A stretch of 64,000 bases of DNA, from contig OZ244198.1 of NCBI GenBank assembly GCA_965216735.1, forward strand, positions 4,927,478 through 4,991,477. Direction: 5' to 3'. The first letter of the stretch is position 1. Every line of letters begins with the position of its first letter. The notes beneath the pieces were generated by a model. The model saw nothing but the letters and a program-made list of their open reading frames with translations. It was not told where the DNA came from and did no database searches. Shown here piece after piece: positions 7,796-56,296 of the stretch. The DNA is from Arenicellales bacterium (GTDB lineage: Bacteria > Pseudomonadota > Gammaproteobacteria > Arenicellales > CBDCFT01). Both the position numbers and the translations under genes were made by a program.

Positions 7796-7797
7796 GG

Positions 7798-7849: not shown

Positions 7850-7855
7850 CCACCT

Positions 7856-10279: not shown

Positions 10280-10309
10280 GTGCGGGGATAACGAAACAGG
10301 AGTTAGAAA

Positions 10310-12260: not shown

Positions 12261-12442
12261 AACCAGACGTAAAAACAGCGCATTCCACGCTCTAAAAACC
12301 TCATTTCAAGGTCACCGCAGCAAGCGGTGGTGTAAGGGGTCAATACCTTTCTATTCTCCCACTTCATGGCTCGCACGAAAGGCAGGGAGTCACTGATAGA
12401 ATGTGACCACGATTCACCGGAAATGATGTTTTCTACTTGAAC

Positions 12443-14557
12443 ATGCCTAACCGCCTGTCCACCGCTACCCTTGAACAAATGCTCGAGCGCTTGCTGGAAG
12501 CGGTGTTGTCGTCGCGCCGTACGGCGGGAGAGCCGGCAAAGGCGATGTCACGGTTGGATCGTGAGCATCAGGAATTTGTGCTGCATTGGTTGCGTATTAT
12601 TGCCAAAACCAATGTCGAACTGGCTTATCAGTTTGTCTCGAATGTCAGCCATGCATTCGACGTGATGGACCAAGATCAGATCAAACAATGGATCATGCAC
12701 GCTCTCGATGTTTATGATCGAGATGGTCTTTATCCCGGTAGTTCAGTGTTGCGCGAAGTGCAGGGTTTTGGCGCCATGGTCCAGCAGCGGCAAAGCGGCG
12801 TCACACTGGAAGATGCGTACAAGGTGTTGCATGCCTATGTCAATGGCTTGTCGGGACGATCGTTGCAAATTGATGGTGGTGCACAGTCTTACACCAGCGG
12901 TGAAACACTTTACTTGCCACACAGTCTGCATCGATTTGATAAAAAACAACTGAATTTCAAACTGTACAAAGCGACCATTGCCCATCTGTGGGCGCAGATG
13001 TGGTTCGGCACGTTCCGTCGCAAAGACGGCCAGAGCAGCCTAACGACTTTGTTCAAGACGTTTGATTCTCCGAGTAAGGCGCAGGAGTTGTTTTATTTTT
13101 TGGAAACGATTCGGCTCGACGCGTGCATCGGACGAGAACTGCCGGGTCTAGCGCGCGATATGCAGCAACTGCAATCGATGACGGATGAAGTTGAAATACC
13201 GCAAGCGTGGCAAGCCATCGTCGAAAGATTGAAGCAAGCTTCGACCAGTGTGACCGATACACGCCGTGCATTGGCCAGGCTATACCCGCTCGTCCATGAA
13301 TTGCCCTCAGCTAAATGTTATCAAGGCACGTTTCGCGCGGAGCTTACCGAGGCGACGGTGGAGCAGCGGCAACAACGGGAGAAAGAGCAATTTCAGCAGG
13401 AATTAGCGAATTTGTGTGATAAATTGACCCTGCCTTATGAAGCCATGGCAGGCGCCAGCCTGGAACAACTCAGTGAAGGTCAACCGGCGCCGGAGCAAGC
13501 CTATGCATTAAATGTGGAGGAGCAAACGCTGACTCCAAACGACGATTTGCAGGCGCTATTACAGTCGATTACTCAGGATTTTGGTGAAGTGCCGGACGAC
13601 TATTGGCAGGCAGTGAGTACACAAAACGGCGCAACCGACGAAACAAATAGTTTAAGCAAAAAGCCGCAGCGCGAAAAGGTGGAGGGGGACGCCATCAGTT
13701 ACGATGAATGGGATTTTCGCCGCCAGAGCTATCGCAAGGGATGGTGCTTTTTGCGTGAACAAGATGTGCGCTGCGGTGACGCAGAATTTGTCGAAAAGAC
13801 CCTGCAAAAATACGCTGGCGTCGTGCGCGAGTTGCGCAAGACATTCGAAGCATTGCGCTCGCAACCACGCCCATTGAAACGGCAACGAGAAGGCGATGAT
13901 ATCGATTTGGATGCGTTCATCGAAGCCTATTCCGATATTGTCACCGGCAACGAATTACCGGAACGCGTTTTTCGGCACATGCATACCCAAGAACGCGACA
14001 TGGCAGTGGTATTTATGGTTGACATGAGTGGTTCAACCAAAGGATGGATCAACGACGCTGAGCGTGAGAGCCTGATATTGTTGTGTGAAGCTTTGGAAAT
14101 TTTGGGGGATCGCTATGCCATATTTGGTTTTTCCGGCATGACACGCAAACGTTGTGAATTATTTCGTATAAAAGGACTGAAAGAGGATTATAGCGACGAA
14201 GTTAAACGGCGCATCAGCGGCATGTGTCCACAGGATTACACTCGCATGGGGGTAATTATTCGTCATTTGACCAAAGTGCTTACCGAAATTGATGCCCAAA
14301 CGCGCTTGTTAATCACCTTGTCAGATGGAAAACCGGATGACTATGATGGCTATCGTGGTGAATACGGAATTGAGGATACTCGACGTGCCTTAATGGAGGC
14401 TAAGCAAACCGGTGTCCATCCATTTTGTATCACTATCGATTCGGAGGCGCGCTCCTATTTGCCGCATATGTACGGTGCGGTGAATTATACGGTGGTCGAC
14501 GATGTCAGCCGGCTGCCATCCAAGGTGTCGGATATCTACCGGCGCCTGACCAGCTGA
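12443..14557 (+). CDS. NorD/CbbO-family protein with a C-terminal von Willebrand factor A (VWA) domain
   Basis: C-terminal 'VVFMVDMSGSTKGW...IFGFSG...YTRMGVIIRHL...LITLSDGKPDDYDGYRGEYGIEDTRRALMEAKQTGVHPFCITID' is colinear with NorD/CbbO VWA domains (MIDAS DxSGS). ATG at 12443 is preferred over TTG at 12437. Confidence 0.8.
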   Translation: MPNRLSTATLEQMLERLLEAVLSSRRTAGEPAKAMSRLDREHQEFVLHWLRIIAKTNVELAYQFVSNVSHAFDVMDQDQIKQWIMHALDVYDRDGLYPGSSVLREVQGFGAMVQQRQSGVTLEDAYKVLHAYVNGLSGRSLQIDGGAQSYTSGETLYLPHSLHRFDKKQLNFKLYKATIAHLWAQMWFGTFRRKDGQSSLTTLFKTFDSPSKAQELFYFLETIRLDACIGRELPGLARDMQQLQSMTDEVEIPQAWQAIVERLKQASTSVTDTRRALARLYPLVHELPSAKCYQGTFRAELTEATVEQRQQREKEQFQQELANLCDKLTLPYEAMAGASLEQLSEGQPAPEQAYALNVEEQTLTPNDDLQALLQSITQDFGEVPDDYWQAVSTQNGATDETNSLSKKPQREKVEGDAISYDEWDFRRQSYRKGWCFLREQDVRCGDAEFVEKTLQKYAGVVRELRKTFEALRSQPRPLKRQREGDDIDLDAFIEAYSDIVTGNELPERVFRHMHTQERDMAVVFMVDMSGSTKGWINDAERESLILLCEALEILGDRYAIFGFSGMTRKRCELFRIKGLKEDYSDEVKRRISGMCPQDYTRMGVIIRHLTKVLTEIDAQTRLLITLSDGKPDDYDGYRGEYGIEDTRRALMEAKQTGVHPFCITIDSEARSYLPHMYGAVNYTVVDDVSRLPSKVSDIYRRLTS

Positions 14558-14889: not shown

Positions 14890-17016
14890 ATGAGTGCCGC
14901 CAGCCTAGAGCAAGCTGTTCAAACCACAACACAAGAAATCCCGTTGCAATCTGCTTCGGTTGATATCTGGGACAAAAAATATCGATTAAAAAGCAAAACC
15001 GGTGAAGTTCTCGATAACGATATCGAGGACTCTAATTACCGCGTTGCGCGTGCCTTGGCTTTAGTGGAAACCACACCGGAAAAACGTTCGGAGTGGTTCG
15101 ATAAGTTCTATTGGGCACTGCAGAACGGCGCGATCCCCGCAGGCCGTGTTTTATCCAACGCTGGTGCACAGGAGCACAAGCCCGCTACCAGCACCATCAA
15201 CTGCACCGTTTCAGGCACCGTCCCCGACTCTATGGACGGCATTCTAAGTATGGTTCACGAAGCTGGACTCACCCTTAAGGCGGGTTGCGGCATCGGATAT
15301 GAGTTCTCTACCCTCCGCCCCAAAGGGGCATTTGTGAGTGGCGCCGGGGCCTATACCTCCGGCGCCCTCTCTTTTATGGATATCTTTGACGCTATGTGTT
15401 TTACCGTGTCGTCCGCCGGCGGACGCCGCGGCGCGCAAATGGGTACGTTTAATATCTCTCATCCGGATATCATGGATTTCATCCGCGCCAAACGCAGTGA
15501 TGGCCGTTTACGCCAGTTCAATTTGTCCTGTCTGATAACTAACGAATTTATCCGTGCGGTAAAAAATGATGCCGATTGGGATTTAGTGTTTCCGGCTACG
15601 GAAGCTGAATATAACGACCAAGAGTGCCGCAAGGTCTGGCGTCCATGGCCAGTGAACAAGGGCTATGTGACAAACGAACGTGGCGAAGTCGCCTGTCGAG
15701 TGTATAAAACTATTCCGGCCAAACGTTTGTGGAACATGATTATGGTATCCACTTACGACTATGCCGAACCGGGGTTCATCTTGATAGATCGTATCAATGA
15801 GATGAATAACAACTGGTTCTGTGAGGACATTCGCGCAACCAACCCTTGTGGTGAACAACCCTTGCCGCCCTATGGTAGTTGCTTGTTAGGGTCGGTCAAC
15901 TTGACCAGGTTTGTCGATGCACCGTTTACCGATGCTGTCAGCTTCGATTGGAAGCGATTTCGCGAAGTGGTTGCTGTATTCAGCCGTATGTTGGACAACG
16001 TAGTGGAGATTAACGGCCTACCCTTGCCACAACAACGTCACGAACTGATGTACAAACGCCGGCACGGTATGGGTTTTCTGGGCTTGGGCTCGGCCATGGT
16101 CATGATGCGTATGAAGTATGGCGAGGCCGATTCGTTGGCGTTTACCGAACGTGTGGCGCGTGAAATGGCTGAAGTCGGCTGGCAAGTGGGATTGGAACTG
16201 GCGCGTGAGAAGGGCGCTGCACCGATCGCACTAGAGTATTTCACTATAACGCCGGAAATGATGGCTAAACGCCCGGAAATGGCAAAAGACGGTATTAAAG
16301 TCGGTGACAAGATTCGTGGTTCGGTGTTACTGGCTAAATACAGCCGCTACATGCAGCAATTCCCAAAGGATTTAACCGACCGCATCGCGCGTGAAGGGGT
16401 GCGTTATACCCATCACACCTCGATCGCACCAACCGGAACCATAAGTTTATCCGTGGGCAACAATGCTAGTAACGGCGTTGAACCGTCTTTTGCACACCAA
16501 TACAGTCGTAATGTGATACGCGAGGGACGCAAGACCAAAGAAAAAATCGACGTCTTTTCCTATGAGCTACTGGCATACCGGACATTGGTTAATCCCGATG
16601 CAATACCGGGTGGTAAAGATGAAAACGGATTGCCCGAATATTTTGTCAGCGCTGAAACCATTACGCCCAAGCAACATGTCGATGTACAGGCAGCGGCGCA
16701 AAAATGGGTGGATTCTTCCATTTCCAAGACAGCCAACGTGCCAACCGACTACCCCTTCGAGGAGTTTAAGGATATTTACATGTATGCCCATGACAAGGGT
16801 TTAAAAGGGTGTACCACATTTCGCTTTAACCCGGCCGCGTTTCAGGGTGTATTGGTGAAAGAACAAGATTTGGCCAATACCACTTATCAATTTGAACTTG
16901 ATAACGGCGAAATAGTAGAAGTTAAAGGCAACGAACAGATTAAATATGATGGTGAGATCCATACCGCAGCTAATTTGTACGATGCGCTAAAAGAAGGCTA
17001 TTACGGTCGTTTTTAA
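14890..17016 (+). CDS. nrdJ: Class II (adenosylcobalamin-dependent) ribonucleotide reductase, large N-terminal polypeptide NrdJa
   Basis: Active-site 'TNPCGEQPLPPYGSCLLGSVNL', 'AGCGIGYEFSTLRPKG' and 'SIAPTGTISL'. It ends before the usual C-terminal region, which the next ORF supplies. Confidence 0.9.
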   Translation: MSAASLEQAVQTTTQEIPLQSASVDIWDKKYRLKSKTGEVLDNDIEDSNYRVARALALVETTPEKRSEWFDKFYWALQNGAIPAGRVLSNAGAQEHKPATSTINCTVSGTVPDSMDGILSMVHEAGLTLKAGCGIGYEFSTLRPKGAFVSGAGAYTSGALSFMDIFDAMCFTVSSAGGRRGAQMGTFNISHPDIMDFIRAKRSDGRLRQFNLSCLITNEFIRAVKNDADWDLVFPATEAEYNDQECRKVWRPWPVNKGYVTNERGEVACRVYKTIPAKRLWNMIMVSTYDYAEPGFILIDRINEMNNNWFCEDIRATNPCGEQPLPPYGSCLLGSVNLTRFVDAPFTDAVSFDWKRFREVVAVFSRMLDNVVEINGLPLPQQRHELMYKRRHGMGFLGLGSAMVMMRMKYGEADSLAFTERVAREMAEVGWQVGLELAREKGAAPIALEYFTITPEMMAKRPEMAKDGIKVGDKIRGSVLLAKYSRYMQQFPKDLTDRIAREGVRYTHHTSIAPTGTISLSVGNNASNGVEPSFAHQYSRNVIREGRKTKEKIDVFSYELLAYRTLVNPDAIPGGKDENGLPEYFVSAETITPKQHVDVQAAAQKWVDSSISKTANVPTDYPFEEFKDIYMYAHDKGLKGCTTFRFNPAAFQGVLVKEQDLANTTYQFELDNGEIVEVKGNEQIKYDGEIHTAANLYDALKEGYYGRF

Positions 17017-17049
17017 GGATCAGGCAATCGAACTTTGGGGTAGAACAAC

Positions 17050-17823
17050 ATGGTAATGAAAATCAGTAACAAAATTGTCGGCTATTCAGTTGTAAAGCAG
17101 ACAGATGTCACGGCAAAGGAAGAAGTGGTTGACACCAAACCATTAGAGAATGTTGTGCAGCAACAAGAAAAGCCACCGCAACTCGCGCCGGCCGCGCCAA
17201 GTGTTATTGCAGACGATCAAGATCTGCCGGCCAATGTTGTGCAAATGCACGAAAAGGTCGAACGACCCGAATCGTTGTTGGGCAGCACCTACAAGATTAA
17301 AACGCCTCTTTCTGATCACGCATTGTATGTAACGATTAACGACATCGTGCTAAATCCGGATACACCTTACGAGAAGCGCCGGCCATTTGAAATTTTTATT
17401 AACTCAAAAAATATGGACCACTTTCAATGGATAGTGGCCCTAACACGTATTATTTCTGCGGTGTTCCGCAAAGGTGGCGATGCAACGTTTTTGGTAGAAG
17501 AACTACGCAGTGTATTCGATCCACAAGGTGGTTATTTCAAGCGTGGTGGTAAATATATGCCTTCATTAGTTGCCGAAATAGGTGATGCGATTGAAACACA
17601 CATGCGTATGATTGGCATGATTAAAGATCCCGGACTCGATGAACATCAACAAAAATTAATTGAGGAAAAACGTAAAGAATACGAATCACGTCGATCAAAT
17701 ACCAACGTTGAACAAGATTTCCCTACGGAAGCGCAATTGTGTAAAAAATGTCATACCAAAGCGGTCATGATGATGGATGGTTGCATGACATGTTTGAATT
17801 GCGGTGATTCAAAATGTGGGTAA
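17050..17823 (+). CDS. nrdJb: NrdJb, C-terminal polypeptide of a split class II RNR (TSCPD domain + Cys-rich tail)
   Basis: 'GSTYKIKTPL..LYVTINDI...PFEIFINSKNMDHFQWIVALTRIISAVFRKGG' is TSCPD-like. The C-terminal tail is 'CKKCHTKAVMMMDGCMTCLNCGDSKCG'. It lies 33 nt downstream of nrdJa, the same split known in Pseudomonas aeruginosa. Confidence 0.8.
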   Translation: MVMKISNKIVGYSVVKQTDVTAKEEVVDTKPLENVVQQQEKPPQLAPAAPSVIADDQDLPANVVQMHEKVERPESLLGSTYKIKTPLSDHALYVTINDIVLNPDTPYEKRRPFEIFINSKNMDHFQWIVALTRIISAVFRKGGDATFLVEELRSVFDPQGGYFKRGGKYMPSLVAEIGDAIETHMRMIGMIKDPGLDEHQQKLIEEKRKEYESRRSNTNVEQDFPTEAQLCKKCHTKAVMMMDGCMTCLNCGDSKCG

Positions 17824-33351: not shown

Positions 33352-33777
33352 TTATTGGTTTATTTGCGTCATCCAAATCTCGTAAGGTTCGTCAGGCCAT
33401 AACGACGTTAACCAGGTGATGATGGCGTCGATTTGTTCATCGTCGAGTGTGTCTTGCCATGCCGGCATGCTTCCGCCAAGCTGTATTGTGCCTTGCTGAA
33501 TAGTTTGCATTAATGCGGCGCGAGGATGATGCCAGGTATGGGCCGTGCCGTTAAGTGGCGGCGGTGGGAATTTGCCGTCCTCACCGCGTTGTTGCCAATT
33601 TCCTGCTCCTCCGGCACTGGTTCCGTGACACACTGCGCAGTTTACCCGGAATAAAGTTTTACCGGTTTTTAGTACTTCAGCATCATATTCACGCTCTGCA
33701 GCAAAGCTTGCCATGCTAATCATTAACAATGAAACGAATATTGTGTACGTAAGGAAATTAGAAAGGGGGAAGATCAT
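33352..33777 (-). CDS. Monoheme c-type cytochrome (periplasmic)
   Basis: Signal peptide, heme-binding 'CAVCHG', and distal 'GGSMPAW'. Confidence 0.8.
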   Translation of the reverse strand: MIFPLSNFLTYTIFVSLLMISMASFAAEREYDAEVLKTGKTLFRVNCAVCHGTSAGGAGNWQQRGEDGKFPPPPLNGTAHTWHHPRAALMQTIQQGTIQLGGSMPAWQDTLDDEQIDAIITWLTSLWPDEPYEIWMTQINQ

Positions 33778-33873
33778 GGATTTTTCCGGTAAATTTCAAG
33801 TAGATAACATTTTATCGTGGCGAGGGCGCCCCTCCCACAGTATCTGTCATGCTCCGCACTACACGTTTGGAAA

Positions 33874-35289
33874 TTAACCATTCCACAATCCTTCGCGTCG
33901 GACATCGTCCATGGCTTTTTCGATCCCCTTACGCAAAATATCTACCATGTCGTCAACTTGCGATTTGGTAATCACCAACGGTGGTGACATGACACACATG
34001 TTGATAATAGGTCGAACGATTAAACCCAATTCCTGACAATATTTATCGATTCGATTACCGACTTCGTAATCCAGCGTCAATGGGTCTTTGCTTTCCTGAC
34101 TAATAACACATTCCACACAAGCCATCAGACCCATGCCACGCACATCGCCGACAATAGGAATGTCGATCAATTCGCGCATGCATTCTTGCAGGTACGGACC
34201 AACCTCCCGGGCATGTTCCAGTAAACCTTCTCGCTCGATAATATCGATATTTTCCAATGCCGCTGCGCTCGCTATGGGATGGCCGGAATAAGTAAAACCG
34301 TTGGAAAAATAGCCGATTTCTTCCGGTGCATCGCCAAGGGTTTTTAGCAAGCGGTCAGAAATCAAGACACCACCCATGGGAACATAGCCGGAGGTCAAAC
34401 CTTTGGCGGTGGTAATCATGTCCGGGACGATATCGAACACGGCTTCGCTGGCGAAGAAATGACCCAGCCGTCCGAATGCGGTGACCACCTCGTCGGAAAT
34501 ATACAAAACGTCATGCTTGCGGCAGACTTCGAGACAGCGTTTGTGATAACCAGGTGGTGGGACAATGACGCCACCGGATGCCAGAATCGGTTCGGCAATA
34601 AACGCGGCTACTTTATCCGCGCCGATTTGCAGAATTTTATTTTCCAGGTCGGCTACTTTTGCGTCACAAAATTCTTCTATGCTCATGCCGTCCGGGCGGC
34701 GGTAGGGATTGGGCGACGGTAGGTGATGCACGGTATTGCGCTCGAAATCGAGAAAGCTCTTATCGCGGGTTTTGCCTGATACGGAGGCGGCGAGGTAAGT
34801 GCTGCCGTGGTAGGCATCAGCACGCGAAATAAGATGTTTCTTTTGTGGGCGGCCGAGAAAATTGTTATAGAACATGGCAAAACGTAAGGCTGAATCGACC
34901 GCCGTCGATCCACCCGTAGTAAAAAACACGTGATTCAAATCGCCGGGCGATAACCCGGCTATTTTTTCCGCTAAAATCGAGGCCGGCGCATTAGTCAAAC
35001 TCCAAGGGCTGTAGTACGCCATTTGTATGGCTTGTTGCGCGATCACATCGGCGATTTCTTTACGGCCATGTCCGACATTGACGCACCACATGCCACCCGG
35101 TCCGTCGATAAGCCGGTTGCCGTCGGAATCATGTAAGTAAACACCTTCCGACTGGGTGACCACCGTGCGTTGATTCTTGCCTATGTTTTTAACGTTGTCC
35201 CAAGGATGCAAAAATGCATTGTCGGCACGTTGTAGCTCATCGGTGTGCATAGTCTTTAGTGCGGTATTGGATTCCACATCAATCTCCAA
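33874..35289 (-). CDS. Class III PLP aminotransferase (omega-amino acid/polyamine:pyruvate transaminase-like)
   Basis: 'LIDGPGGMWCVNVGHGR', 'FFTTGGSTAVDSALR', 'YISDEVVTAFGRLGHFF' and 'DMITTAKGLTSGYVPMGG' (PLP lysine). Confidence 0.88.
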   Translation of the reverse strand: MEIDVESNTALKTMHTDELQRADNAFLHPWDNVKNIGKNQRTVVTQSEGVYLHDSDGNRLIDGPGGMWCVNVGHGRKEIADVIAQQAIQMAYYSPWSLTNAPASILAEKIAGLSPGDLNHVFFTTGGSTAVDSALRFAMFYNNFLGRPQKKHLISRADAYHGSTYLAASVSGKTRDKSFLDFERNTVHHLPSPNPYRRPDGMSIEEFCDAKVADLENKILQIGADKVAAFIAEPILASGGVIVPPPGYHKRCLEVCRKHDVLYISDEVVTAFGRLGHFFASEAVFDIVPDMITTAKGLTSGYVPMGGVLISDRLLKTLGDAPEEIGYFSNGFTYSGHPIASAAALENIDIIEREGLLEHAREVGPYLQECMRELIDIPIVGDVRGMGLMACVECVISQESKDPLTLDYEVGNRIDKYCQELGLIVRPIINMCVMSPPLVITKSQVDDMVDILRKGIEKAMDDVRREGLWNG

Positions 35290-35307
35290 GATAGGCTTTG
35301 CGCTAAG

Positions 35308-36510
35308 TTAAAAGTCTTTCGGCGGCGTGACGTAGCGCCGCGGTGGATTAAAAAAGGGTTCTTCCACAATGCGGCAACGTTCCATGGTGCGTTGCCACTT
35401 AAGTTCCTTTTGTACATAAATATCCGCCCACAAGTCGTTCCACATGCCTTGCCGTCCGGCCTGGATAGTGGCGATTGCAATATTGCGTTTGCACGTCGGC
35501 GACCACATGGCCGAGGTAACATGCCCGATTTCGGTTTTCCGGGCGTAATACAACAGAGCATCCCTGGCGGGTTTGTTACCACACACATCCAACGGTACGG
35601 TTTCGAAACGCGAACCGTTTTTTCTTTCCTCAACCAATGCATGGTGCCCGTTGAAATGTCCCTTGCGAAAATCCACCAGCCAACCAAGACCCAGCTCGAA
35701 TGGTGAGCGTCCGCGATTAGGCCGCAAACATAACTGCGCTGGAATAAAATCGGCGTGCGGCAAAATAAAGCCGGCTTCGATGCGCAACAGATTCAGGGCA
35801 CGCGATCCTAGCGGTACGATCTGATAAAACACCTGAAGCGCCATTAACTCATCCCACAATATTTCCGCGCATTCTGGATCGACCCATAGTTCGTATCCGA
35901 GATCGCCGGTAAAACCCGTGCGCGAAACCGTTAGCGAGCCACCGTGATATTCATAATCAGTAAATTGAAATGGTCTTAGATTTTCCACGTCACTGAGTCC
36001 AAAGCGCTTTAGAACGGCGCAAGAGGTCGGACCCTGCACTGCTAATGCGGCGATGTCCTCAGTCACATCATCAATTTCGACTTTAAAACCAAAGGCGGTA
36101 TCCAGTAACCAGGGTAAGTGCCGGTCTTGTACACATAAACGAAAATCGTTTTCACTTACGCGAAATAGCGTGCCATCGTCTAACACATAACCGCGGTCAT
36201 TGCAGAACACCACATAAGCAACGGCGCCGATTTTTAGTTTACGCACGTCTCGTGTTACCAACCGGTTAAGAAAATCGACTGCTTGATTGCCGTAAACGTG
36301 ATATTTGATCATTGGCGACATATCGAACAGGCTGGTTTGATTACGTGTCGCAAAATATTCGCTTTCCACCGTGTTGTAGCAGTCTACTGTAGTGTAGGCA
36401 CCCCAACGTATCCATTCATTGGTTTTACACACTGCGGATGTACGCGAGTGAAAAGGCGTGTTCACGGCCTTTTGGATTTTTGTTGGGGTAATATTTGCGT
36501 TTACGTTCAT
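35308..36510 (-). CDS. GcvT-family aminomethyltransferase-like (folate-binding) protein
   Basis: 'LFDMSPMIKYHVYG', 'ALAVQGPTS', 'SRTGFTGDLGYELW', 'LLRIEAGFI'. The ATG at 36510 shares one nt with the upstream stop (TAATG). The track's longer ORF overlaps the upstream gene. Confidence 0.85.
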   Translation of the reverse strand: MNVNANITPTKIQKAVNTPFHSRTSAVCKTNEWIRWGAYTTVDCYNTVESEYFATRNQTSLFDMSPMIKYHVYGNQAVDFLNRLVTRDVRKLKIGAVAYVVFCNDRGYVLDDGTLFRVSENDFRLCVQDRHLPWLLDTAFGFKVEIDDVTEDIAALAVQGPTSCAVLKRFGLSDVENLRPFQFTDYEYHGGSLTVSRTGFTGDLGYELWVDPECAEILWDELMALQVFYQIVPLGSRALNLLRIEAGFILPHADFIPAQLCLRPNRGRSPFELGLGWLVDFRKGHFNGHHALVEERKNGSRFETVPLDVCGNKPARDALLYYARKTEIGHVTSAMWSPTCKRNIAIATIQAGRQGMWNDLWADIYVQKELKWQRTMERCRIVEEPFFNPPRRYVTPPKDF

Positions 36511-38072
36511 TAACCCATCTCCCGCATGAGTGCGCGTGCTGCATTCATACCTGCTGCACCCATGACACCGCCACCGGGATGACATCCCGCACCACACAAA
36601 AACAAACCCGGTATCGGGGTGGTGTACTGTGCGAAACATGGTATCGGACGCAGCATCATAAAGCGCTCCAGACCCATCTCGCCGTGATGCCAGTGCCCAC
36701 CGGTCATTTTGAATTGAGTTTCAAGATCGGCTGGGTTTAAAAGTTGCGTGTCGATAATTTTTTCTTGGATATCCGGAGCGTACGCCGTCAACGTATCGAT
36801 TACGGTCTTAGTAAATTGGTCCCGCGCATTGTCCCAGCCACCGGTTAAACTGTGCGGTGCATATTGGACAATAGCGGATAATACATGTTTTCCCTCCGGG
36901 GCCAGGCTTTGGTCATGAATCGATGGAATAGTAATTTCCATAACCGGTTCTCTTGAAAATTCACCGTACTTGGAGTGGTTATGTGCAGTTTCGACGGCTT
37001 CAATACTCGGAGCGATGAGCAATCGTGCGCTCAAGCGCTGTACATCCAAACCGGTGAATTGCGGTAAATCATCCAATGCAATATTTACTTTGGCGGCATT
37101 ACCTATCATTGGAATGTTGCGAACACGTCGTAGGAAGCCGGTATCTAAATGTTCATTACCCAGCAAAGATAAAAACGTTCGTTTGGGATCCGCATTCGAT
37201 ATGACGGCGTTCGCCGCTACGATTTCCCCCGTTTCGAGTTCGACGCCTGCAGCACGATCGTTTTCCACCACAATACGTGTCACCCTAGCCTGTGTCCGAA
37301 TGTCAACACCCAACTGCATGGCCATTGTCGCTAGTGTGTCACTTAGTGTGCCCATGCCGCCGATGGGATGTGATAGCTCATTCCAGATGTGTGCCCGGCG
37401 ATGCAAATAAGTCAGCACTGTGTTTGGCGCCTGCGGTCCGTAACGTGTACCGAGTGTGGCATCGAATGCTAACGCACCCTGTAACAAAGGTGTGTTGAAA
37501 TTCTCCCTTAGCCAATCGGCGATATTCATTCCGGCAATTCGCAATAACTCGCGCATATCGCTTTTACCCAGCCGCCGAATCCGAAGGCCAAGCGCGAGCA
37601 ATTCGAAACGTTCGTGCCAACCCCTATCTTTTAAACGTGGTGGGCTATTCGCATAAACCCTGCGCAGTAGGTCGGCAAACTTTTCTACGTGGTGCTCGAA
37701 TTGCTGGTAATGAGTCGCATCCAATTCGGAAAAAGCCAGCAAATGTTCGGTCGTTCGCGCGGCGTCATGTTCGATGACTAAGTGCCGACCGTCTCTACTG
37801 AGAGAGATCGATGGCATGTGAGTGGCGGAAAATTCCAAACCATTCGCCTCAAGTCGCAAGTCTTTCCAAACATCGGGATGCAAACCATAAAACAGGTGCG
37901 CGCAACTGGACACACGGAAACCAGGACAAATTTCACCGGTCACAGCGGCGCCCCCCACTTGATCCGATGCTTCCAGTATGGTGACGTTATGACCGCTGCG
38001 TGCCAGATAGACCGCACACACCAAACCATTGTGTCCGGCACCGATGATGACAATATCCAAACGCCGGCTCAT
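36510..38072 (-). CDS. Phytoene desaturase (CrtI)/amine oxidase-family FAD-dependent oxidoreductase, paralog 2
   Basis: 'DIVIIGAGHNGLVCAVYLARSGHNVTILE' and the C-terminal 'LFLCGAGCHPGGGVMGAAGMNAA' CrtI-family signature. Confidence 0.85.
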   Translation of the reverse strand: MSRRLDIVIIGAGHNGLVCAVYLARSGHNVTILEASDQVGGAAVTGEICPGFRVSSCAHLFYGLHPDVWKDLRLEANGLEFSATHMPSISLSRDGRHLVIEHDAARTTEHLLAFSELDATHYQQFEHHVEKFADLLRRVYANSPPRLKDRGWHERFELLALGLRIRRLGKSDMRELLRIAGMNIADWLRENFNTPLLQGALAFDATLGTRYGPQAPNTVLTYLHRRAHIWNELSHPIGGMGTLSDTLATMAMQLGVDIRTQARVTRIVVENDRAAGVELETGEIVAANAVISNADPKRTFLSLLGNEHLDTGFLRRVRNIPMIGNAAKVNIALDDLPQFTGLDVQRLSARLLIAPSIEAVETAHNHSKYGEFSREPVMEITIPSIHDQSLAPEGKHVLSAIVQYAPHSLTGGWDNARDQFTKTVIDTLTAYAPDIQEKIIDTQLLNPADLETQFKMTGGHWHHGEMGLERFMMLRPIPCFAQYTTPIPGLFLCGAGCHPGGGVMGAAGMNAARALMREMG

Positions 38073-39676
38073 GAAAACGGTACAACGTCAGTCGGCATTT
38101 TCAGATCGCGCAGCATTTCACGGGCAGCATTAGCGCCTGGCGCACCCATGACACCACCGCCAGGATGAGTGCTCGAACCACACATGTATAAACCGGGAAT
38201 GGGTCCACGGTATTGTGCGAATCCGGGTAATGGGCGGTTAAACAACAATTGATCTAGAGTGAGTTCCCCTTGAAAGATGTTGCCCTCCGTCAAACCGACT
38301 TCGGCTTCCAGTTCCCGCGGCGTGCGTATCTCGGCATGCAGGATCAAATCTCTAAAATCCGGGCTGTGCTCGGCGATGGCGTCGATAACCGTATTGCCAA
38401 ACGCATCGCGGTCGGCATCCGTCCACTCCCCGGTCGCTAGCCTGGGAGGCACGTATTGCACGAATACCGTCATCATGTGTTTACCCGCTGATGCCATAGT
38501 TGGATCGATTTGTGTTGGTATCAACATATCCACATAAGGCTGCCTCGACCAGGCGCCATTTTTCCAGTCGTCATAAGCACGTTCCAGTGTTAGCATGGAA
38601 TCCGTGATATGCATGTCTCCCTGGGAGGCGGGGCAGTCATCCGGGATGGCGGTAAACGTAGGTAATCCATCCAACGCTATGTTTAGCTTTCCTGACGAAC
38701 CTCGGATTTTGAAATTTTTTACTTGACGTAAGAATTCGTCCGATAAGTGTTTATCATCTACCAGGTTTAGAAACGTTCGTTTTAGATCAAGATTCGACAC
38801 CACTTGTTGCGCGTAAAACTCATCACCGTTAGCCAATGCCACACCGGTAACACGGCCGTCGTATACCATGATATCGGTCGCTTCAGCGTTAACACGTATA
38901 TCGCCACCGGCGGCTTGCAGGGCATTTGCCAAAGCTTGAGTAATTGCACCCATACCACCACGGGCAAATCCCCACGCGCCGATTTGACCGTCCACTTCCC
39001 CCATATAATGATGTAACAATACGTATGCAGACCCGGGCGAGTACGGGCCTAAACCGGTACCGATAATAGAACTTCCAGCCAAGGCTCCTTTGATAACTTC
39101 GGATTCGAAATACTGGTCCAGAAAATCGGCACAACTAATCGTGTAGAAACGAAGTGTGTCGTAAAGCTGTTCCTCGTCAAGATCGAAAAACGCTTGCCCC
39201 AGTTGCCATAGTTCTTTGAGATCACGCCATTTAAACGAGGCTGGGTCGGGGGGCGTGCGCATGAGCATTGGTTTAATAAACCGGCATTGACGCGATACTT
39301 CCAGGCTGTAGTCATCATAAGCCTCCGAGTCCCGTGCGGAGTGACGCGCCATCTCACGGCGGTTCGCTTCATGATCGGAATAGCTGCAAAGATAGTTGCC
39401 GTCACGCATCAAGGTAATATTGCCTTCGTAAGGTATGATTTGTAGACCGAAACGGGACAACTCAAGAGTGCGCATGATTTCCGGGCGTAGCAAACTGCAT
39501 ACATAGGAGCAATTGGAATAAGTAAATCCCGGATACAATTCACGGCTGATGGCGGCGCCACCGACTTGGTCATTTTTTTCCAGCACCAAAACACGCACGC
39601 CCGCATTGGCCAGATAGCAGGCGTTGATCAAGCCGTTGTGACCCGCACCGATAACGATGACGTCGTAGCTATTCAC
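38069..39676 (-). CDS. Phytoene desaturase (CrtI)/amine oxidase-family FAD-dependent oxidoreductase, paralog 1
   Basis: 'DVIVIGAGHNGLINACYLANAGVRVLVLE' and C-terminal 'LYMCGSSTHPGGGVMGAPGANAA'. 4-nt ATGA overlap with paralog 2. Confidence 0.85.
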   Translation of the reverse strand: MNSYDVIVIGAGHNGLINACYLANAGVRVLVLEKNDQVGGAAISRELYPGFTYSNCSYVCSLLRPEIMRTLELSRFGLQIIPYEGNITLMRDGNYLCSYSDHEANRREMARHSARDSEAYDDYSLEVSRQCRFIKPMLMRTPPDPASFKWRDLKELWQLGQAFFDLDEEQLYDTLRFYTISCADFLDQYFESEVIKGALAGSSIIGTGLGPYSPGSAYVLLHHYMGEVDGQIGAWGFARGGMGAITQALANALQAAGGDIRVNAEATDIMVYDGRVTGVALANGDEFYAQQVVSNLDLKRTFLNLVDDKHLSDEFLRQVKNFKIRGSSGKLNIALDGLPTFTAIPDDCPASQGDMHITDSMLTLERAYDDWKNGAWSRQPYVDMLIPTQIDPTMASAGKHMMTVFVQYVPPRLATGEWTDADRDAFGNTVIDAIAEHSPDFRDLILHAEIRTPRELEAEVGLTEGNIFQGELTLDQLLFNRPLPGFAQYRGPIPGLYMCGSSTHPGGGVMGAPGANAAREMLRDLKMPTDVVPFS

Positions 39677-39778: not shown

Positions 39779-40573
39779 CTAAATTGGGCGGTACAAAATG
39801 AACGACAAATCGTCCGGATGAGCAGGGGTTTTATCGGAAGGTGGCCATCGTTTCATACGCTCGCTGGCTTGATCGACTAACGTCTGTGCCGATTCCGGTA
39901 ATGGGCCCTTGCGCACGGATTCAATAATTTCTTCTTCGAATAAGTTATCAAATAATCCATCACTCGCCACCAGCACCGTATCGCGCGGGGCTAACGTAAT
40001 TCGGGTTCCTACATCGATATACATGTCTATGCTTCCAATAACGTTAGACACCAAATTACGCTCGCTATGCAGCAGCGCATCGATTTCGGATAATCTTCCC
40101 GACTCCAGCGCCTCGCCTACCGGTGAGTGCGTTGGCGCGCGGAACTTAGGTTTGCCTTGTTGTCCGATTACCCACACGGAGGAATCACCCACTTGGTAGG
40201 TCAGTAACTCGTTTTCGCGAATCTCGGCCACTGACAATGTGGTTGCGTTACCCGCTTCTTCGCTAACTAGCACGTTGTTACAGCCGTTGACAATTTCCTC
40301 TATGGTATTGTTGCGGTTGTTATTGAGGCCGTGTGCCAGGTCGTCAACTACCCGCTTCGAGGCAGCCGCGCCTTTAGGTAGACCACCTAATCCGTCAGCA
40401 ACGGCCAGAACATTATGTTTTTGGTTGATTTGGATCACGGCGACGGAATCTTCATTGTCCCTGGTTTTTCCGGGCGCTCGTCTAGTAAATACCACCGCGT
40501 CACCACCGCTCAACTTGATTTCGCTGGGTGTATCAAAATCCATCCCGCTGTAGATAAACGGTTGATAAGTCAA
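39779..40573 (-). CDS. PP2C-family Ser/Thr protein phosphatase
   Basis: 'NEDSVAV', 'LAVADGLGG', 'VLVASDGLFDNL'. Confidence 0.8.
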   Translation of the reverse strand: MTYQPFIYSGMDFDTPSEIKLSGGDAVVFTRRAPGKTRDNEDSVAVIQINQKHNVLAVADGLGGLPKGAAASKRVVDDLAHGLNNNRNNTIEEIVNGCNNVLVSEEAGNATTLSVAEIRENELLTYQVGDSSVWVIGQQGKPKFRAPTHSPVGEALESGRLSEIDALLHSERNLVSNVIGSIDMYIDVGTRITLAPRDTVLVASDGLFDNLFEEEIIESVRKGPLPESAQTLVDQASERMKRWPPSDKTPAHPDDLSFILYRPI

Positions 40574-40608
40574 GGGAAATCCCCTTGCAACGAATTACAG
40601 AACAATAC

Positions 40609-41340
40609 TTAGGACCATTCAAGATTCTCGATATAAGCACGCAGTTTACCTGCAGTGCGAAATTTCTTCACAATCAGGGATTGTTTTAGTCCACAGCATA
40701 TCCCTTTGATTTCCGGCGGCAGCGAGGCGTAATGCTTTTGTCCTCCCATTGCATCGTAAAAAATACGTACCAGGCAAATTACATCATGGCGAATGTTTTC
40801 TGCGTTGGGCGGGCCCCAATGAAACATATCCAACAATTTTAGATCAAAGCCTAACCCAAGGCGTTGCACAATCACATTGTCCGTGTGTAAGTCGCCGTGA
40901 TAATCGCCTAACGCGTGAATTTGTTGAATACCCGTAGCCAGCGCGTGCAACAAGTGCAAGGCCTGAAATGGGCTGAGCCGCTTACCTTTTTGACGCTTCA
41001 AGAAATCGGTAAGTAACTCACCTTCCACATAATCGGATACCAGGAACGAGATTTTATGATCCTTGTGCTCGAATTGGTCTTGGGTGTGATACTGAATGAC
41101 GATTGGGCATTGACGCAATTTGTGCAACTTACGCGCGTAAAACTTGAGTGCTCTGTCACGCACATTTCGGTGTGGAAAAAAGAATTTTGCTGTGCGTTCG
41201 ATACCGGTCGCTAGTTCTCGCACCAAATACACTTCACCCTCCCACCCGCCACCGAGAAAACTAGTCACACTGTATTTACCGGCGATAAGGACACCGGGAC
41301 GCAGCCGAAATTTGTCTATTCGGTTTGATTTTTTTCGCAT
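40609..41340 (-). CDS. Small Ser/Thr protein kinase-like protein
   Basis: Gly-rich loop 'LGGGWEGEVYL', 'AKFF' (catalytic Lys region), catalytic loop 'HGDLHTDNVIV', then 'KLLDMF'. Confidence 0.75.
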   Translation of the reverse strand: MRKKSNRIDKFRLRPGVLIAGKYSVTSFLGGGWEGEVYLVRELATGIERTAKFFFPHRNVRDRALKFYARKLHKLRQCPIVIQYHTQDQFEHKDHKISFLVSDYVEGELLTDFLKRQKGKRLSPFQALHLLHALATGIQQIHALGDYHGDLHTDNVIVQRLGLGFDLKLLDMFHWGPPNAENIRHDVICLVRIFYDAMGGQKHYASLPPEIKGICCGLKQSLIVKKFRTAGKLRAYIENLEWS

Positions 41341-53894: not shown

Positions 53895-55253
53895 TCAGGT
53901 TTGCAAATACCACTCGTATTCTTTAGCAGTTATCACGTCTTCAAAAGCTTCGAGTTCAGCCTGTTTGCATTCAGTATAAGCTTGCACATAGCGGTCACCG
54001 AGGTAGTCTTTTAATACAGCGCTTGCCGCCATACGATCAAGTGCCAGTTGCAGGCGGAAGGGTAAATTCGGGTCGCATGTTTCACAGGCATTACCGTCAT
54101 GTGGTTCGCCTGGATCGATCTTATTGTCTATGCCATAGTGCATCCCGGCTAATATTACAGCCAGTGCCAAATAAGGATTAGCGTCAGCGCCAGCGACTCG
54201 GTGTTCGATACGTCTGGATGCACCGTCGCCGATGGGGATACGAATTGCCGTGGAACGATTTTCGAATCCCCAGCTTGCTTGGGTAGGAACGAAATGGTCG
54301 GGTTGAAAACGACGATAGGAATTGACGCTTGGTGCCAACACTGCCATGTATCCTGGCATGAGTCGCAACACGCCACCGATGGCGTGACGCATAGTGTCGG
54401 AAATGTTGTTACCGGTTTGGCCGCCGCCATCGAACATGTTTGTATCGTTTTTGCCGTAAAGACTAATGTGTAGATGCAATCCGCTTCCCGCCTGTTCCAA
54501 GTAAGGCTTAGGCATAAAAGTCGCTTGCATACCGTGTTTACGCGCAATGCCTTGCACTGCTCGTTTGAACATCACGCACTCATCCGCCGCCCGCAGCAAG
54601 TCATTTGTGTGATTCAGGTTAATTTCGAATTGACCGGGTGCATACTCGGAGGTAATCGCACCGATTTTTATGTTTTGTAGTTCACAACAGCGAGTAACGT
54701 CTGCCAAATACTCAGCGAAATCGTCCAAAGCATTGAAACCATATACTTGGATTGATGACGCCCTGGTGTTGGCAGAAGGTGCTTTCGGTGCTTGTGGAAA
54801 TCCGGCAGCGGTTCTTTGTTGGTCGATAAGATAGAACTCTAGCTCAAACGCCGTCACCGGTTTTAATTCACTATCATCGAACCTTTCTAACACCCGTCGT
54901 AAAACATTACGCGGTTCGAAGTGGTAAGGTACATTGTCCGTGCAGTGCAAAGTCATCATGGCTTGCGCGGTCGGGTAATCAGCCCACGGAACCGGCGCCA
55001 GGGTGCCGGGAATAACACTGACCAATTCATCCGGGTCACCGTCGGAAAAGCCCAGTCCGAGCGGGTTCATGTTTTCACCGGTTACCGAAAGTAAGAATAC
55101 CGAGCCACAGTGAGCCGCGCCTTTTTCGAAGACTTTTTCTAGCTGATCGGCTGGATAACGTTTGCCACGGACGACGCCACATAGGTCGCCATAAAAAAGA
55201 TCGAAATATTGGAGATCGGGATAGCTTTTTCGAAAGGTCTTCAGTGAGTCCAT
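53895..55253 (-). CDS. Glutamine synthetase-family gamma-glutamyl-amine ligase (PuuA/GmaS-like)
   Basis: 'ELEFYL', 'EYAPGQFEINL', 'ATFMPKP...GSGLHLHISL', 'NSYRRF', 'NRSTAIRIP' and 'RIEHRVAGADANPYL' give the type I GS fold. No adenylylation-loop context noted. Confidence 0.88.
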   Translation of the reverse strand: MDSLKTFRKSYPDLQYFDLFYGDLCGVVRGKRYPADQLEKVFEKGAAHCGSVFLLSVTGENMNPLGLGFSDGDPDELVSVIPGTLAPVPWADYPTAQAMMTLHCTDNVPYHFEPRNVLRRVLERFDDSELKPVTAFELEFYLIDQQRTAAGFPQAPKAPSANTRASSIQVYGFNALDDFAEYLADVTRCCELQNIKIGAITSEYAPGQFEINLNHTNDLLRAADECVMFKRAVQGIARKHGMQATFMPKPYLEQAGSGLHLHISLYGKNDTNMFDGGGQTGNNISDTMRHAIGGVLRLMPGYMAVLAPSVNSYRRFQPDHFVPTQASWGFENRSTAIRIPIGDGASRRIEHRVAGADANPYLALAVILAGMHYGIDNKIDPGEPHDGNACETCDPNLPFRLQLALDRMAASAVLKDYLGDRYVQAYTECKQAELEAFEDVITAKEYEWYLQT

Positions 55254-55264
55254 TATTGTTGGTT

Positions 55265-56296
55265 TTACTTCGTTTTGTTGTTAGACGAACTCCCACGATA
55301 GTCGAACGTAGCATTGATTCGGTCGATCAAATATCGTCCTCCCGTCGTCGGTGGGTATTTTGGCAGGTTGTCCGGTGTTTGACAGCTTTCCAGACAGGTA
55401 ATAGGTGTATCAAACTCAGGATCGTAAAAGAAGGCAATGGAATAGCGGTGTTTGTAGGGATGACTGATGACACGATGCACCGTAGACGAAAACAACTTAT
55501 TGGTCCATCGCTCCAACATATCACCAACATTGATGACAAACGTGTCGTCGATGGGTATCGCATTTAGCCAGTTGCCAGCCTTGTCTTTGATTTGCAGACC
55601 GCCCACGTCATCTTGGGCAAGAATGGTCAGGCAACCGAAGTCGGTATGCACACCGGCGCCGAGCCGTGATTCGTCAAAGTTGTTTGACCGTGGTGGATAA
55701 TGCAATGGACCGATAGTCGCCATAGGATGGCGCAGATATTTATCAAAGAAGTTTTCGTTTAAATCCAGCGCTAGCGCAAAAGCACGCATGAGTTCCAACC
55801 CGAGCTTTTGGCACACCTTGTAATAGACTTGCATGGACTCTTTCCAGCCCGGTAGACCGTCCGGCCATTGGTTGGGGCCATGCAAAGGTGTGTTGGCAGT
55901 TACCGTAGGATGATCCATTGCCAGGTCACGGCCAATCTTTATTCCTTCTTTATAGTCGCCACCGTATTGTTGTTTGGCCGGGTCCAGATTTTCGCCACCG
56001 ATTGCAAAATAACCACGGTGATAGGGTGAGTTTTCGATGGCAATTCCTGATTTTGTTTTCAATGGCAGGTCAAAAAAAAGTTTGGCCTGTGCGAATGTTT
56101 CGTCGATCAGGTCTTGGTCGACACCATGATTTTTAATGTAGAAAAATCCAATATTCCGGCAAGCGTCGCCGATTTCCTTAGCCACGCCCTGCCGTTGCCG
56201 GGTGTTGCCGTGCAAATACGGTTGTAAGTCGATAACAGGAATCGAATGAAAACGTGGATTTTTACCACACGATTCCCGGTTTTCAACAACTGCCAT
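55265..56296 (-). CDS. 2-oxoglutarate/Fe(II)-dependent oxygenase (isopenicillin N synthase family)
   Basis: 'IPVIDL', 'GFFYIKNHGV', facial triad 'GVHTDFGCLTIL...' and 'STVHRV'. Confidence 0.85.
   Translation of the reverse strand: MAVVENRESCGKNPRFHSIPVIDLQPYLHGNTRQRQGVAKEIGDACRNIGFFYIKNHGVDQDLIDETFAQAKLFFDLPLKTKSGIAIENSPYHRGYFAIGGENLDPAKQQYGGDYKEGIKIGRDLAMDHPTVTANTPLHGPNQWPDGLPGWKESMQVYYKVCQKLGLELMRAFALALDLNENFFDKYLRHPMATIGPLHYPPRSNNFDESRLGAGVHTDFGCLTILAQDDVGGLQIKDKAGNWLNAIPIDDTFVINVGDMLERWTNKLFSSTVHRVISHPYKHRYSIAFFYDPEFDTPITCLESCQTPDNLPKYPPTTGGRYLIDRINATFDYRGSSSNNKTK

Follow-up and report, generated by a model that had tools for sequence, protein, structure and literature searches.

A candidate tetrahydrofolate-linked N-demethylase with PYROXD2-like flavoproteins in an Arenicellales bacterium and other Proteobacteria

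Gene order and conservation of the cluster

In a stretch of 64,000 nucleotides from an Arenicellales bacterium (contig OZ244198.1, positions 4,927,478 to 4,991,477; in the following, the window), we have analysed a group of minus-strand genes that may encode a system for the oxidative demethylation of amines. Gene A (38069-39676, GTG start) encodes a flavin adenine dinucleotide (FAD) flavoprotein of 535 amino acids (aa), which we regard as a PYROXD2-like subunit, and gene B (36510-38072, minus strand) encodes a second FAD flavoprotein of 520 aa, which is a diverged paralogue of A. They are followed on the same strand by gene T (35308-36510), the product of which is a stand-alone protein of the GcvT family (aminomethyltransferase fold, 400 aa), and by gene AT (33874-35289, minus strand), which encodes a class-III aminotransferase of the omega-amine:pyruvate type (471 aa, counted from the first start codon). 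Next to these, also on the minus strand, there is a gene for a monoheme cytochrome c of 141 aa (33352-33777), a neighbour that lies outside the conserved system.

The genes are tightly packed. The stop codon of A and the start codon of B overlap by 4 nucleotides (nt) in the sequence ATGA (38069-38072, minus strand; '...ttttcATGAgcc'), an arrangement of translational coupling, and the stop codon of B and the start codon of T overlap in the sequence TAATG (36508-36512, minus strand; 'gggtTAATGaac'), where the A at 36510 is common to TAA and ATG. The stop codon TAA of T occupies positions 35310-35308 and the first start codon of AT, a TTG, is found at 35289, which gives a gap of 18 nt. An earlier note on this DNA had described the same four-gene packing on the minus strand, with the two overlaps, the 18-nt gap and the cytochrome c gene, and we find all of them at the positions that it gave. 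The real start of AT is probably the GTG at 35277, and the gap thus 30 nt, because this codon has a GGAG 6 nt 5' of it and because the AT of a close relative (locus L085) has 467 aa. As for T, its longest open reading frame (ORF) opens at 36639, and the 400-aa form that starts at 36510 fits the length of the orthologues (395-402 aa). No Rfam element or riboswitch was found in the 64-kb window at the gathering score, and none at E<=1 between 33000 and 41600. A scan for promoters and terminators gave a signal no higher than expected from shuffled sequences.

The conservation of the cluster was analysed by a profile search with T, in which each species was represented by one genome. The best 80 loci were retained and compared with the proteins of the window through six-frame ORFs, and neighbours were counted in the 52 loci that have 4 kb or more of flanking sequence on each side. 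The carriers span Gamma-, Alpha- and Betaproteobacteria: among the best 80 loci we find Steroidobacteraceae, Woeseiaceae, Kiloniellaceae, Halieaceae/Luminiphilus, Porticoccaceae, Arenicellales and the sponge-associated Poriferihabitaceae, and furthermore Burkholderiaceae, Hoeflea, Mesorhizobium, Manganibacter, Kiloniella laminariae and Lentisalinibacter. Essentially all loci with enough flanking sequence have the order A-B-T on a single strand. Gene A is adjacent in 51 of the 52 loci and gene B in 49, while the identity of the orthologues to the proteins of the window is 58-76% for A, 37-54% for B and 43-60% for T. The genes also overlap in other species-representative genomes: A with B in 48 of 59 loci, and B with T, usually by 4 nt, in 45 of 66. 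The tight packing exceeds chance. The conservation of the cluster in other genomes, which the earlier note had made a prerequisite of its proposal, is thus clear, and A, B and T are a conserved unit, probably also a functional one.

Beyond these loci, relatives of T at 55-65% identity are found by the thousands in metagenomes, and single B sequences occur on up to 245 contigs, Tara Oceans samples among them. Two cultured bacteria, Shinella zoogloeoides p1 and Parasedimentitalea marina pW43C, have the same layout under generic names in the RefSeq annotation. Orthologues of A are also present in Ensifer adhaerens, Rhizobium sp. SL42 and Fuscovulum ytuae.

In L085, the T protein of which is 83% identical to that of the window, the whole order kinase-PP2C-A-B-T-AT-cytochrome c is kept. 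Since the synteny with the window reaches 10 kb to either side, this arrangement reflects relatedness and not selection for linkage. The Ser/Thr protein kinase of this series has 243 aa in the window and the PP2C phosphatase 264 aa; their genes occupy 39779-41340 on the strand of A, 102 nt upstream of it, and apart from L085 they are found in none of the 52 other loci. The hexapeptide protein downstream of the cluster is not syntenic even in L085 and is likewise absent from the 52 other loci.

We have also seen several apparent gene fusions. In a Pseudomonadales metagenome-assembled genome from the Fram Strait (locus L055, 8342-11152), B and T are joined in frame in an ORF of 937 codons with a linker of about 25 residues. 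The nearest homologue of its B part in the database (89% identity) is a separate protein of 533 aa, and the ORF results from a sequencing error or else from a recent fusion. Two more candidates, one joining B to T (P0125) and one joining A to B (P0126), were discarded as artefacts with frameshifted stretches, and a third (P0251), in which A is joined to an N-terminally truncated B, is dubious as a fusion.

Protein families and the relation to PYROXD2

The Pfam families that the earlier note had suggested checking (PF01593 for A and B, PF01571 and PF08669 for T, PF00202 for AT) all match by score. In the case of the Amino_oxidase family PF01593, A scores 59 bits and B 78 bits at a cut-off of 19.8. 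The two proteins are 37% identical to each other (337 bits). The dinucleotide motif for FAD, GAGHNG with the acidic residue that ends strand beta-2, is invariant in the A and B families (in A, the GxGxxG is found at residues 10-15), and so is the C-terminal motif HPGGG; for B, both motifs are invariant in 27 orthologues. The families differ in a loop near the flavin: A has EGNIFQGELT, invariant in 38 orthologues, and B has GGHWHHGE at the equivalent site, which is invariant within the B family and aligns to 'GSAFSVEP' of CrtI. None of the proteins A, B and T has a leader peptide; each starts directly at its fold (MNSYDVIVIGAGHNG; MSRRLDIVIIGAGHNG).

The earlier note had called A and B "CrtI-type", and this holds for the fold. 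An AlphaFold2 model of A (pLDDT 85.6) has the CrtI-like three-domain fold, with the CrtD-like structure 4rep as the best Foldseek match (TMq 0.74) and CrtI (4dgk) next, followed by NicA2, putrescine oxidase and the monoamine oxidases. Close homologues of A and B are missing among the solved structures, where 4dgk and 4rep come nearest by sequence as well. For B, the model has a lower confidence (pLDDT 67), too low for a reading of the active site, and in both models the loops near the flavin are low-confidence regions. As a statement about family membership, on the other hand, the label is imprecise: with the crtI_fam model (TIGR02734) A scores 121 and B 131 at a cut-off of 238, and with CrtO (NF045689), the best match of both among the NCBIfam models, 296 and 287 at a cut-off of 1000. 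None of the curated NCBIfam models in the June 2026 release is specific to A, B or T.

The protein T matches PF01571 with 189 bits and PF08669 with 33.5 bits. Its best NCBIfam match is trimethylamine N-oxide (TMAO) demethylase, Tdm (244 bits at a cut-off of 1100), of which it covers the profile positions 381-724 of 763. The GcvT models follow, with 173 at a cut-off of 236 for TIGR00528 and 217 at 300 for NF001567. The scores are lower for soxA (154 at 1164, C-terminal third only), DmdA (128 at 410) and LigM/DesA (47-52 bits, also below the cut-offs). The catalytic aspartate pair D111-D112, the motif SRTGFTGDLGYE and R243-x-E245 align to GcvT (1yx2, 1woo) and to Tdm (9q59), and the positions of the folate site, including the motif TG(F/Y)TG(D/E)xG(Y/F)E, are invariant in 33 orthologues. 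A loss of these residues would have spoken against a folate-linked function, as the earlier note had pointed out; all of them are kept. Judged from these residues, the folate site of T is intact, and T is presumably an acceptor of one-carbon (C1) units that binds tetrahydrofolate (THF). No gcvH or gcvP was called in the loci examined, and SoxB-, SoxD- or SoxG-like genes are absent.

A relation of the flavoproteins to an animal protein appears already in the databases, where an orthologue of B bears the UniRef name 'Pyridine nucleotide-disulfide oxidoreductase domain-containing protein 2'. A HMMER search with A against 1.84 billion cluster representatives has animal PYROXD2 clusters among its best 150 matches: oyster, mayfly and flatworm clusters and a choanoflagellate homologue match at 39-42% identity over the full length. 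Overall, A is 38-42% identical to animal PYROXD2, with E values from 1e-105 to 1e-128. The best of these values comes from the protein of the oyster Magallana gigas, in which residues 41-582 match residues 2-526 of A (38% identity, 376 bits). With its 37% identity to B, A is no closer to its own partner than it is to animal PYROXD2; B is 34% identical to the oyster protein (270 bits). A and oyster PYROXD2 also have the loop GGNIF(H/Q)G in common (EGNIFQGELT in A, GGNIFHGAIS in the oyster), for which the aligned stretches are GLTEGNIFQGELTLDQL in A and GLTGGNIFHGAISLDQL in the oyster, as opposed to the GGHWHHGE of B. By its sequence, A belongs with animal PYROXD2 rather than with the CrtI family.

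Human PYROXD2 is a mitochondrial protein and a mitochondrial disease gene, and its 'precise biological function' is described as little known (PMC8777681). A paper of July 2026 still assigns it no reaction (PMC13352909), and in the literature up to that month, subscription-only papers being outside our search, we found genetics and cell biology of PYROXD2 and no enzymology. The genetics are informative. Some of the strongest quantitative trait loci known for metabolites are variants at the PYROXD2 locus in humans; they affect urinary trimethylamine and plasma dimethylamine, and lower expression of PYROXD2 goes with higher trimethylamine (PMC3169529, PMC4564198). Up to 50% of the variance of plasma N6-methyl-lysine is associated with variants at this locus, and the other associated metabolites are N6,N6-dimethyl-lysine, trimethyl-lysine, N-methylpipecolate and N-acetyl-isoputreanine (PMC8109053). 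From these data we conclude that the flavoprotein family would handle N-methylated amines, to which the bacterial gene order adds a folate partner.

A second, independent case of the pairing, which supports this view, is found on a plasmid of Shinella sumterensis (locus L089, NZ_CP132306.1, 5023-14161). Here, an operon encodes an enoyl-CoA hydratase (ECH), an ADP-forming CoA ligase, a hydroxyacyl-CoA dehydrogenase (HADH), one A-like flavoprotein with the loop SGHIFHGE and 39.5% identity to A and, directly after it, a GcvT-family protein that is 28% identical to T; a class II aldolase and a BKACE protein follow downstream. This is a one-flavoprotein version of a PYROXD2-like protein paired with GcvT, in a context that resembles carnitine or gamma-butyrobetaine catabolism. 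Further paralogues of COG1233 (35-39% identity), encoded on plasmids of Sphingobium, Roseovarius and Paracoccus aminophilus, stand in unrelated contexts with no GcvT gene beside them, and the pairing with GcvT is therefore specific to the subfamily of A and the Shinella sumterensis variant.

Catabolic context, proposed reaction and alternatives

The aminotransferase AT scores 289 bits with PF00202 and 720 bits with NF005447, which is above the cut-off of 618. The structures nearest to it are the amine transaminase 3i5t (512 bits), the putrescine aminotransferase SpuC (6gwi) and a polyamine:pyruvate transaminase (9j4z). In the earlier note it was taken as a part of the cluster, and in this regard the outcome is divided. 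The link is real, as a class-III aminotransferase lies flush with A-B-T in 35 of 55 loci and any class-III aminotransferase is found in 42 of the 52. On the other hand, it is not a fixed one: a type similar to glutamate-1-semialdehyde (GSA) aminomutase and GntE lies directly upstream of A in 29 of the 55 loci, whereas the PRK07036 type of the window lies directly downstream of T in 6. These two types are not orthologous and never occur together in one locus, and it is because of this non-orthologous displacement that we think that a transamination belongs beside the step catalysed by A-B-T.

The other neighbours are those of amine catabolism. A Pot-like ATP-binding cassette (ABC) transporter is found in 40 of the 52 loci, a TetR regulator in 40 and a Rieske oxygenase in 39. 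The binding protein of the transporter is PotF-like (322-404 bits) and its ATPase is of the PotG/PotA type (TIGR01187, above the cut-off), a TetR_C_6 domain of the BetI type is present in the regulators, and the Rieske proteins are paralogues of GbcA, with 141-294 bits at a cut-off of 670. In some loci there is a protein of about 680 aa that combines Oxidored_FMN (old yellow enzyme, OYE) with Pyr_redox_2, which we take to be the architecture of DgcA, StcD and trimethylamine dehydrogenase (TMADH). An ADP-forming acyl-CoA ligase lies just downstream in 20 loci, and some loci have an acyl-CoA dehydrogenase. More variable neighbours are an aldehyde dehydrogenase (ALDH) similar to PuuC and betaine aldehyde dehydrogenase, a PuuA-like gamma-glutamyl-amine synthetase with a PuuD-like amidotransferase and a DAO oxidase, a deacetylase of the histone deacetylase (HDAC) type, BKACE, a carnitine-dehydrogenase-like HADH-thioesterase, GNAT, a flavin-containing monooxygenase (FMO) and a GMC oxidoreductase. 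In summary, the context of A-B-T is the catabolism of cationic amines, polyamines or quaternary amines. For example, in Parasedimentitalea marina pW43C (locus L087, 1-9840) the genes A-B-T-AT-GNAT stand beside an amidohydrolase, an HDAC-type deacetylase, BKACE, a second class-III aminotransferase, a LysR regulator, a polar-amino-acid ABC transporter and two Rieske-type 'SRPBCC' proteins, which hints at a substrate that is N-acylated or N-methylated and either lysine-like or a beta-amino acid.

The window itself has a second cluster of similar logic (5766-11638). It consists of a GbcA-like Rieske protein (5766-6845, minus strand), an RpiR regulator (6920-7795, minus strand), a fused DAO-FAO_M-GCV_T-GCV_T_C protein of 810 aa (7847-10279, plus strand) and a GSA-aminomutase-like class-III aminotransferase (10310-11638, plus strand), which is only 26-30% identical to the aminotransferase that lies upstream of A in other loci. 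As in the A-B-T loci, a THF-linked demethylase would be combined with a transaminase and a Rieske protein, and the analogy supports a comparison of A-B-T with the fused enzyme.

We propose that A, B and T are, with fair probability, the subunits of a heteromeric enzyme, a THF-linked flavoprotein N-demethylase that would act on a methylated amine and the primary-amine product of which would be transaminated. The FAD subunits A and/or B would oxidise an N-methyl group of a secondary and/or tertiary amine to the iminium, and T would capture the C1 unit on THF as 5,10-methylene-THF, so that free formaldehyde would not be released; such a capture is the role of the GcvT domains in the alpha subunit of sarcosine oxidase, in dimethylglycine dehydrogenase (DMGDH) and in TMAO demethylase. 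The primary amine that is set free would then be converted to an aldehyde by the adjacent omega-aminotransferase AT. In the fuller loci, this aldehyde would be oxidised by the ALDH, the PotF/G-type ABC importer would feed the pathway, the BetI-type TetR protein would regulate it, and the GbcA-like Rieske proteins and the flavin mononucleotide (FMN)/Fe-S enzymes of the DgcA/StcD/TMADH architecture would remove earlier methyl groups from a quaternary or tertiary nitrogen. The sequences show the gene order, the coupling, the conservation, the families, the kept folate motifs and the homology to PYROXD2; what we infer is that a complex is formed, that it demethylates an amine and hands C1 to THF, in which order the steps follow, and what accepts the electrons.

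As for the substrate, a diamine, a polyamine or an omega-amino acid with an omega-N-methyl group is suggested by the context. N-methylputrescine and 4-methylaminobutyrate would be consistent with it, with the fused 4-methylaminobutyrate oxidase (MABO) of Arthrobacter as a precedent, and so would partly demethylated gamma-butyrobetaine or beta-alanine betaine and, because of the PYROXD2 data, methylated lysines.

Several points weigh against this proposal. The solved structures nearest to A and B, CrtI and the CrtD-like protein, are desaturases of C-C bonds and not amine oxidases. The case for a physical complex, which we consider probable, comes from gene order and coupling; as Rosetta-stone evidence the apparent fusions described above are weak, and we do not count any of them as solid. 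A flush aminotransferase is absent in 20 of the 55 loci, and no consistently encoded electron acceptor, be it an electron-transferring flavoprotein (ETF), a ferredoxin or a quinone-linked partner, was found in the loci. The copy in the window is minimal and consists of A-B-T-AT only, with the transporter, the regulator and the Rieske and FMN enzymes absent from its immediate neighbourhood. Finally, the metabolite associations of PYROXD2 are genetic correlations and not enzymology.

Maybe A, B and T are neighbours in a pathway and not one enzyme. Stand-alone enzymes of the GcvT family such as DmdA and LigM require no flavoprotein, and by this precedent T alone could transfer a methyl group from an onium compound or an ether to THF, yielding 5-methyl-THF without redox chemistry, while A and B would work on the carbon skeleton as CrtI-like C-C desaturases or as oxidases, for example on that of an acyl-CoA. 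The solved C-C desaturases just mentioned would fit, as would the acyl-CoA ligase downstream in 20 loci, the acyl-CoA dehydrogenase in some, and the Shinella sumterensis operon, where the A-like gene stands between the HADH, ECH and CoA-ligase genes and the GcvT gene, and where no acyl-CoA dehydrogenase is annotated. We nevertheless consider it unlikely, as T scores far higher with Tdm (244) and GcvT (217) than with DmdA (128) or LigM/DesA (47-52 bits), a 4-nt coupling of A-B-T over about 50 species is typical of subunits, and the genetics of PYROXD2 point to N-methyl amines and not to acyl chains. Another reading keeps the amine and drops the methyl group: A-B could be an oxidase or dehydrogenase of unmethylated polyamines of the spermidine, norspermidine or homospermidine type, which cuts internal secondary amines and has T as an accessory. 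The PotF/PotG transporter, the SpuC-like transaminase, the PuuA-, PuuC- and PuuD-like neighbours and the HDAC-type proteins (similar to acetylpolyamine amidohydrolase) would be at home in such a pathway, A and B match PF01593, and N-acetyl-isoputreanine is among the metabolites associated with PYROXD2. This reaction, however, releases no C1 unit, so that neither the invariant folate site of T nor its obligate linkage would be explained, and the recurrent GbcA-like Rieske proteins and enzymes of the DgcA/StcD architecture point to N-methylated or quaternary nitrogen; we regard it as quite improbable.

Two further explanations have hardly any probability in our opinion. If the database name 'phytoene desaturase family protein' were taken literally, A and B would be desaturases or ketolases of carotenoids or other isoprenoids. 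CrtO is the best NCBIfam match, there are matches to CrtI-family hidden Markov models, and CrtD-like 4rep and CrtI 4dgk are nearest in fold, but the scores given above are far below the cut-offs, the fixed partners are a folate protein and genes of amine catabolism, and among the recurrent neighbour families in more than 80 loci we saw no carotenoid or isoprenoid genes (crtB, crtE, crtY and the like) and no lipid genes beside A and B. A tie to carotenoid or lipid substrates, which the earlier note had named as an observation that would overturn its proposal, is therefore found in no locus, and we give next to no credence to this function. The other explanation, only marginally less remote, concerns the cytochrome c, which the earlier note had suggested as the electron acceptor. 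The amine-oxidase-fold enzyme NicA2 passes its electrons to the cytochrome c CycN, NicA2 is among the structural neighbours of A, and no convincing terminator separates AT from the cytochrome c gene, which lies 96 nt further 3' on the same strand, an arrangement that is kept in L085. The protein has one CAVCH motif (PF13442/PF00034) and a Sec-type signal peptide at its N-terminus, a hydrophobic leader that ends in SFA-AE and indicates export. A, B and T, on the other hand, are without a leader, and the chemistry of THF is cytoplasmic. Since the synteny with L085 reflects relatedness and the gene is found in none of the 52 other loci, a role as the physiological acceptor of the electrons of A and B is very improbable; the cytochrome c is periplasmic and stands outside the A-B-T system.

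Of the readings of the cluster, the one as a split analogue of the enzymes of the DMGDH and sarcosine oxidase type, which the earlier note had already put forward, is thus best supported, and the homology of A to PYROXD2 lends it independent support. A more far-reaching version can be put forward tentatively at best. A-B-T may be the bacterial prototype of an unrecognised class of N-demethylases that is built on PYROXD2-family flavoproteins, in which each FAD subunit would act on one methylation state of an omega-N-methylated amine (the tertiary, then the secondary amine) and T would serve the two in common as the acceptor of their C1 units. It is a speculation that two active sites for two methylation states would fit the distinct invariant loops of A and B. 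By extension, human PYROXD2 might be an orphan mitochondrial demethylase of free N6-methyl- and dimethyl-lysine, possibly folate-linked. Its activity would then be that of an 'N6-methyl-lysine oxidase / epsilon-alkyllysinase' (EC 1.5.3.4).

A-B-T is widespread. Its carriers include abundant marine clades (Porticoccaceae/SAR92, Halieaceae, Luminiphilus, Woeseiaceae), symbionts of sponges, rhizobia and, from soil, Steroidobacteraceae. As all databases use the names 'phytoene desaturase family' or 'aminomethyltransferase family' for these proteins, a pathway by which methyl groups and dissolved organic nitrogen are used has probably been mis-annotated or missed. Since there are cultured and sequenced carriers, such as Kiloniella laminariae DSM 19542, Shinella zoogloeoides XJ20, Parasedimentitalea marina and Oceanicoccus sagamiensis, genetics and biochemistry are feasible at once, and A-B-T supplies a concrete hypothesis for the function of human PYROXD2 that is cheap to test. 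If it is true, a demethylase role of PYROXD2 would explain one of the strongest metabolite quantitative trait loci in humans.

Some other features of the window may be of interest. At 53895-56296, a protein of the glutamine-synthetase fold, nearest to gamma-glutamylputrescine synthetase (258 bits at a cut-off of 650), adjoins a 2-oxoglutarate (2OG)-Fe(II) oxygenase (DIOX_N and 2OG-FeII_Oxy) with no NCBIfam match at E<=1e-30, and the two may be another amine-modifying pair. An ORF of 706 aa on the plus strand (12437-14557) has no Pfam match at E<=1e-6, and at 14890-17823 there is the large subunit of a ribonucleotide reductase (708 aa), followed by a TSCPD-domain protein of 257 aa.

Comparison with known systems

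The earlier note knew of no characterised system of this composition, and our literature search on the gene combination, the annotation strings and the candidate substrates, subscription-only papers being outside it, gave none either. One lead, found under the name 'aminomethyltransferase family protein', turned out to be DmmD, and another consisted of ordinary sox operons. DmmD is a stand-alone GcvT-like subunit of dimethylamine monooxygenase (PMC5520151), but DmmABC, unlike A and B, are not PF01593 flavoproteins.

The closest parallels are SoxBDAG, DMGDH, sarcosine dehydrogenase (SARDH), dimethylglycine oxidase (DMGO) and MABO, which, as we propose for A-B-T, combine a flavoprotein that oxidises N-methyl groups with a THF site of the GcvT fold. 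Enzymes of the SoxBDAG and DMGDH type end betaine-type demethylation pathways, and T aligns to the THF domains of SoxA and DMGO. The flavoprotein is a different one, however, as A and B are of the PYROXD2/CrtI lineage (PF01593, GR2) and not of the DAO/SoxB type (PF01266 fold). Compared with sarcosine oxidase, A-B-T has two paralogous FAD subunits and a separate GcvT polypeptide, whereas delta and gamma subunits and the NAD/FMN-binding N-terminal part of SoxA are missing. Furthermore, the product of A-B-T would need a transaminase and hence would not be glycine, unlike that of the sarcosine oxidase and DMGDH types. The fused architecture of DMGDH and SARDH (DAO, FAO_M, GCV_T and GCV_T_C) is not that of A-B-T, although the window has it at 7847-10279.

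Tdm resembles T in its C-terminal THF domain (residues 381-724; PDB 9q59), while Tdm itself is a non-redox enzyme with an N-terminal metal domain. CrtI, CrtD and CrtO have the same three-domain fold as A and B, which differ from them in their scores, their gene context and their folate partner. The pair NicA2-CycN is unlike A-B-T, as it consists of an exported flavoprotein and a conserved cytochrome c partner, neither of which is seen here. The fuller loci, on the other hand, are similar to the glycine betaine route of Pseudomonas (GbcAB, DgcAB, SoxBDAG), with a Rieske protein, an OYE and Pyr_redox_2 protein, a THF-linked flavoenzyme and a BetI-type regulator. They depart from it in that their Rieske proteins are only paralogues of GbcA, their transporter is of the PotF and not of the ProX/OpuAC type, and the last step would be a transamination.

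PYROXD2, finally, is homologous to A over its full length and has the same loop near the flavin. It differs from A-B-T in being a single gene with a mitochondrial presequence and with no known B-like or dedicated GcvT-like partner, and as no reaction is described for it in the papers found, PYROXD2 is not a characterised precedent. If our proposal is true, the PYROXD2/CrtI lineage would be a third flavoprotein lineage among the THF-coupled N-demethylases, beside the DAO type and the non-redox Tdm and DmdA types. THF-coupled flavoprotein N-demethylases are known as a class; what would be new here is the lineage of the flavoprotein and the composition of the subunits.

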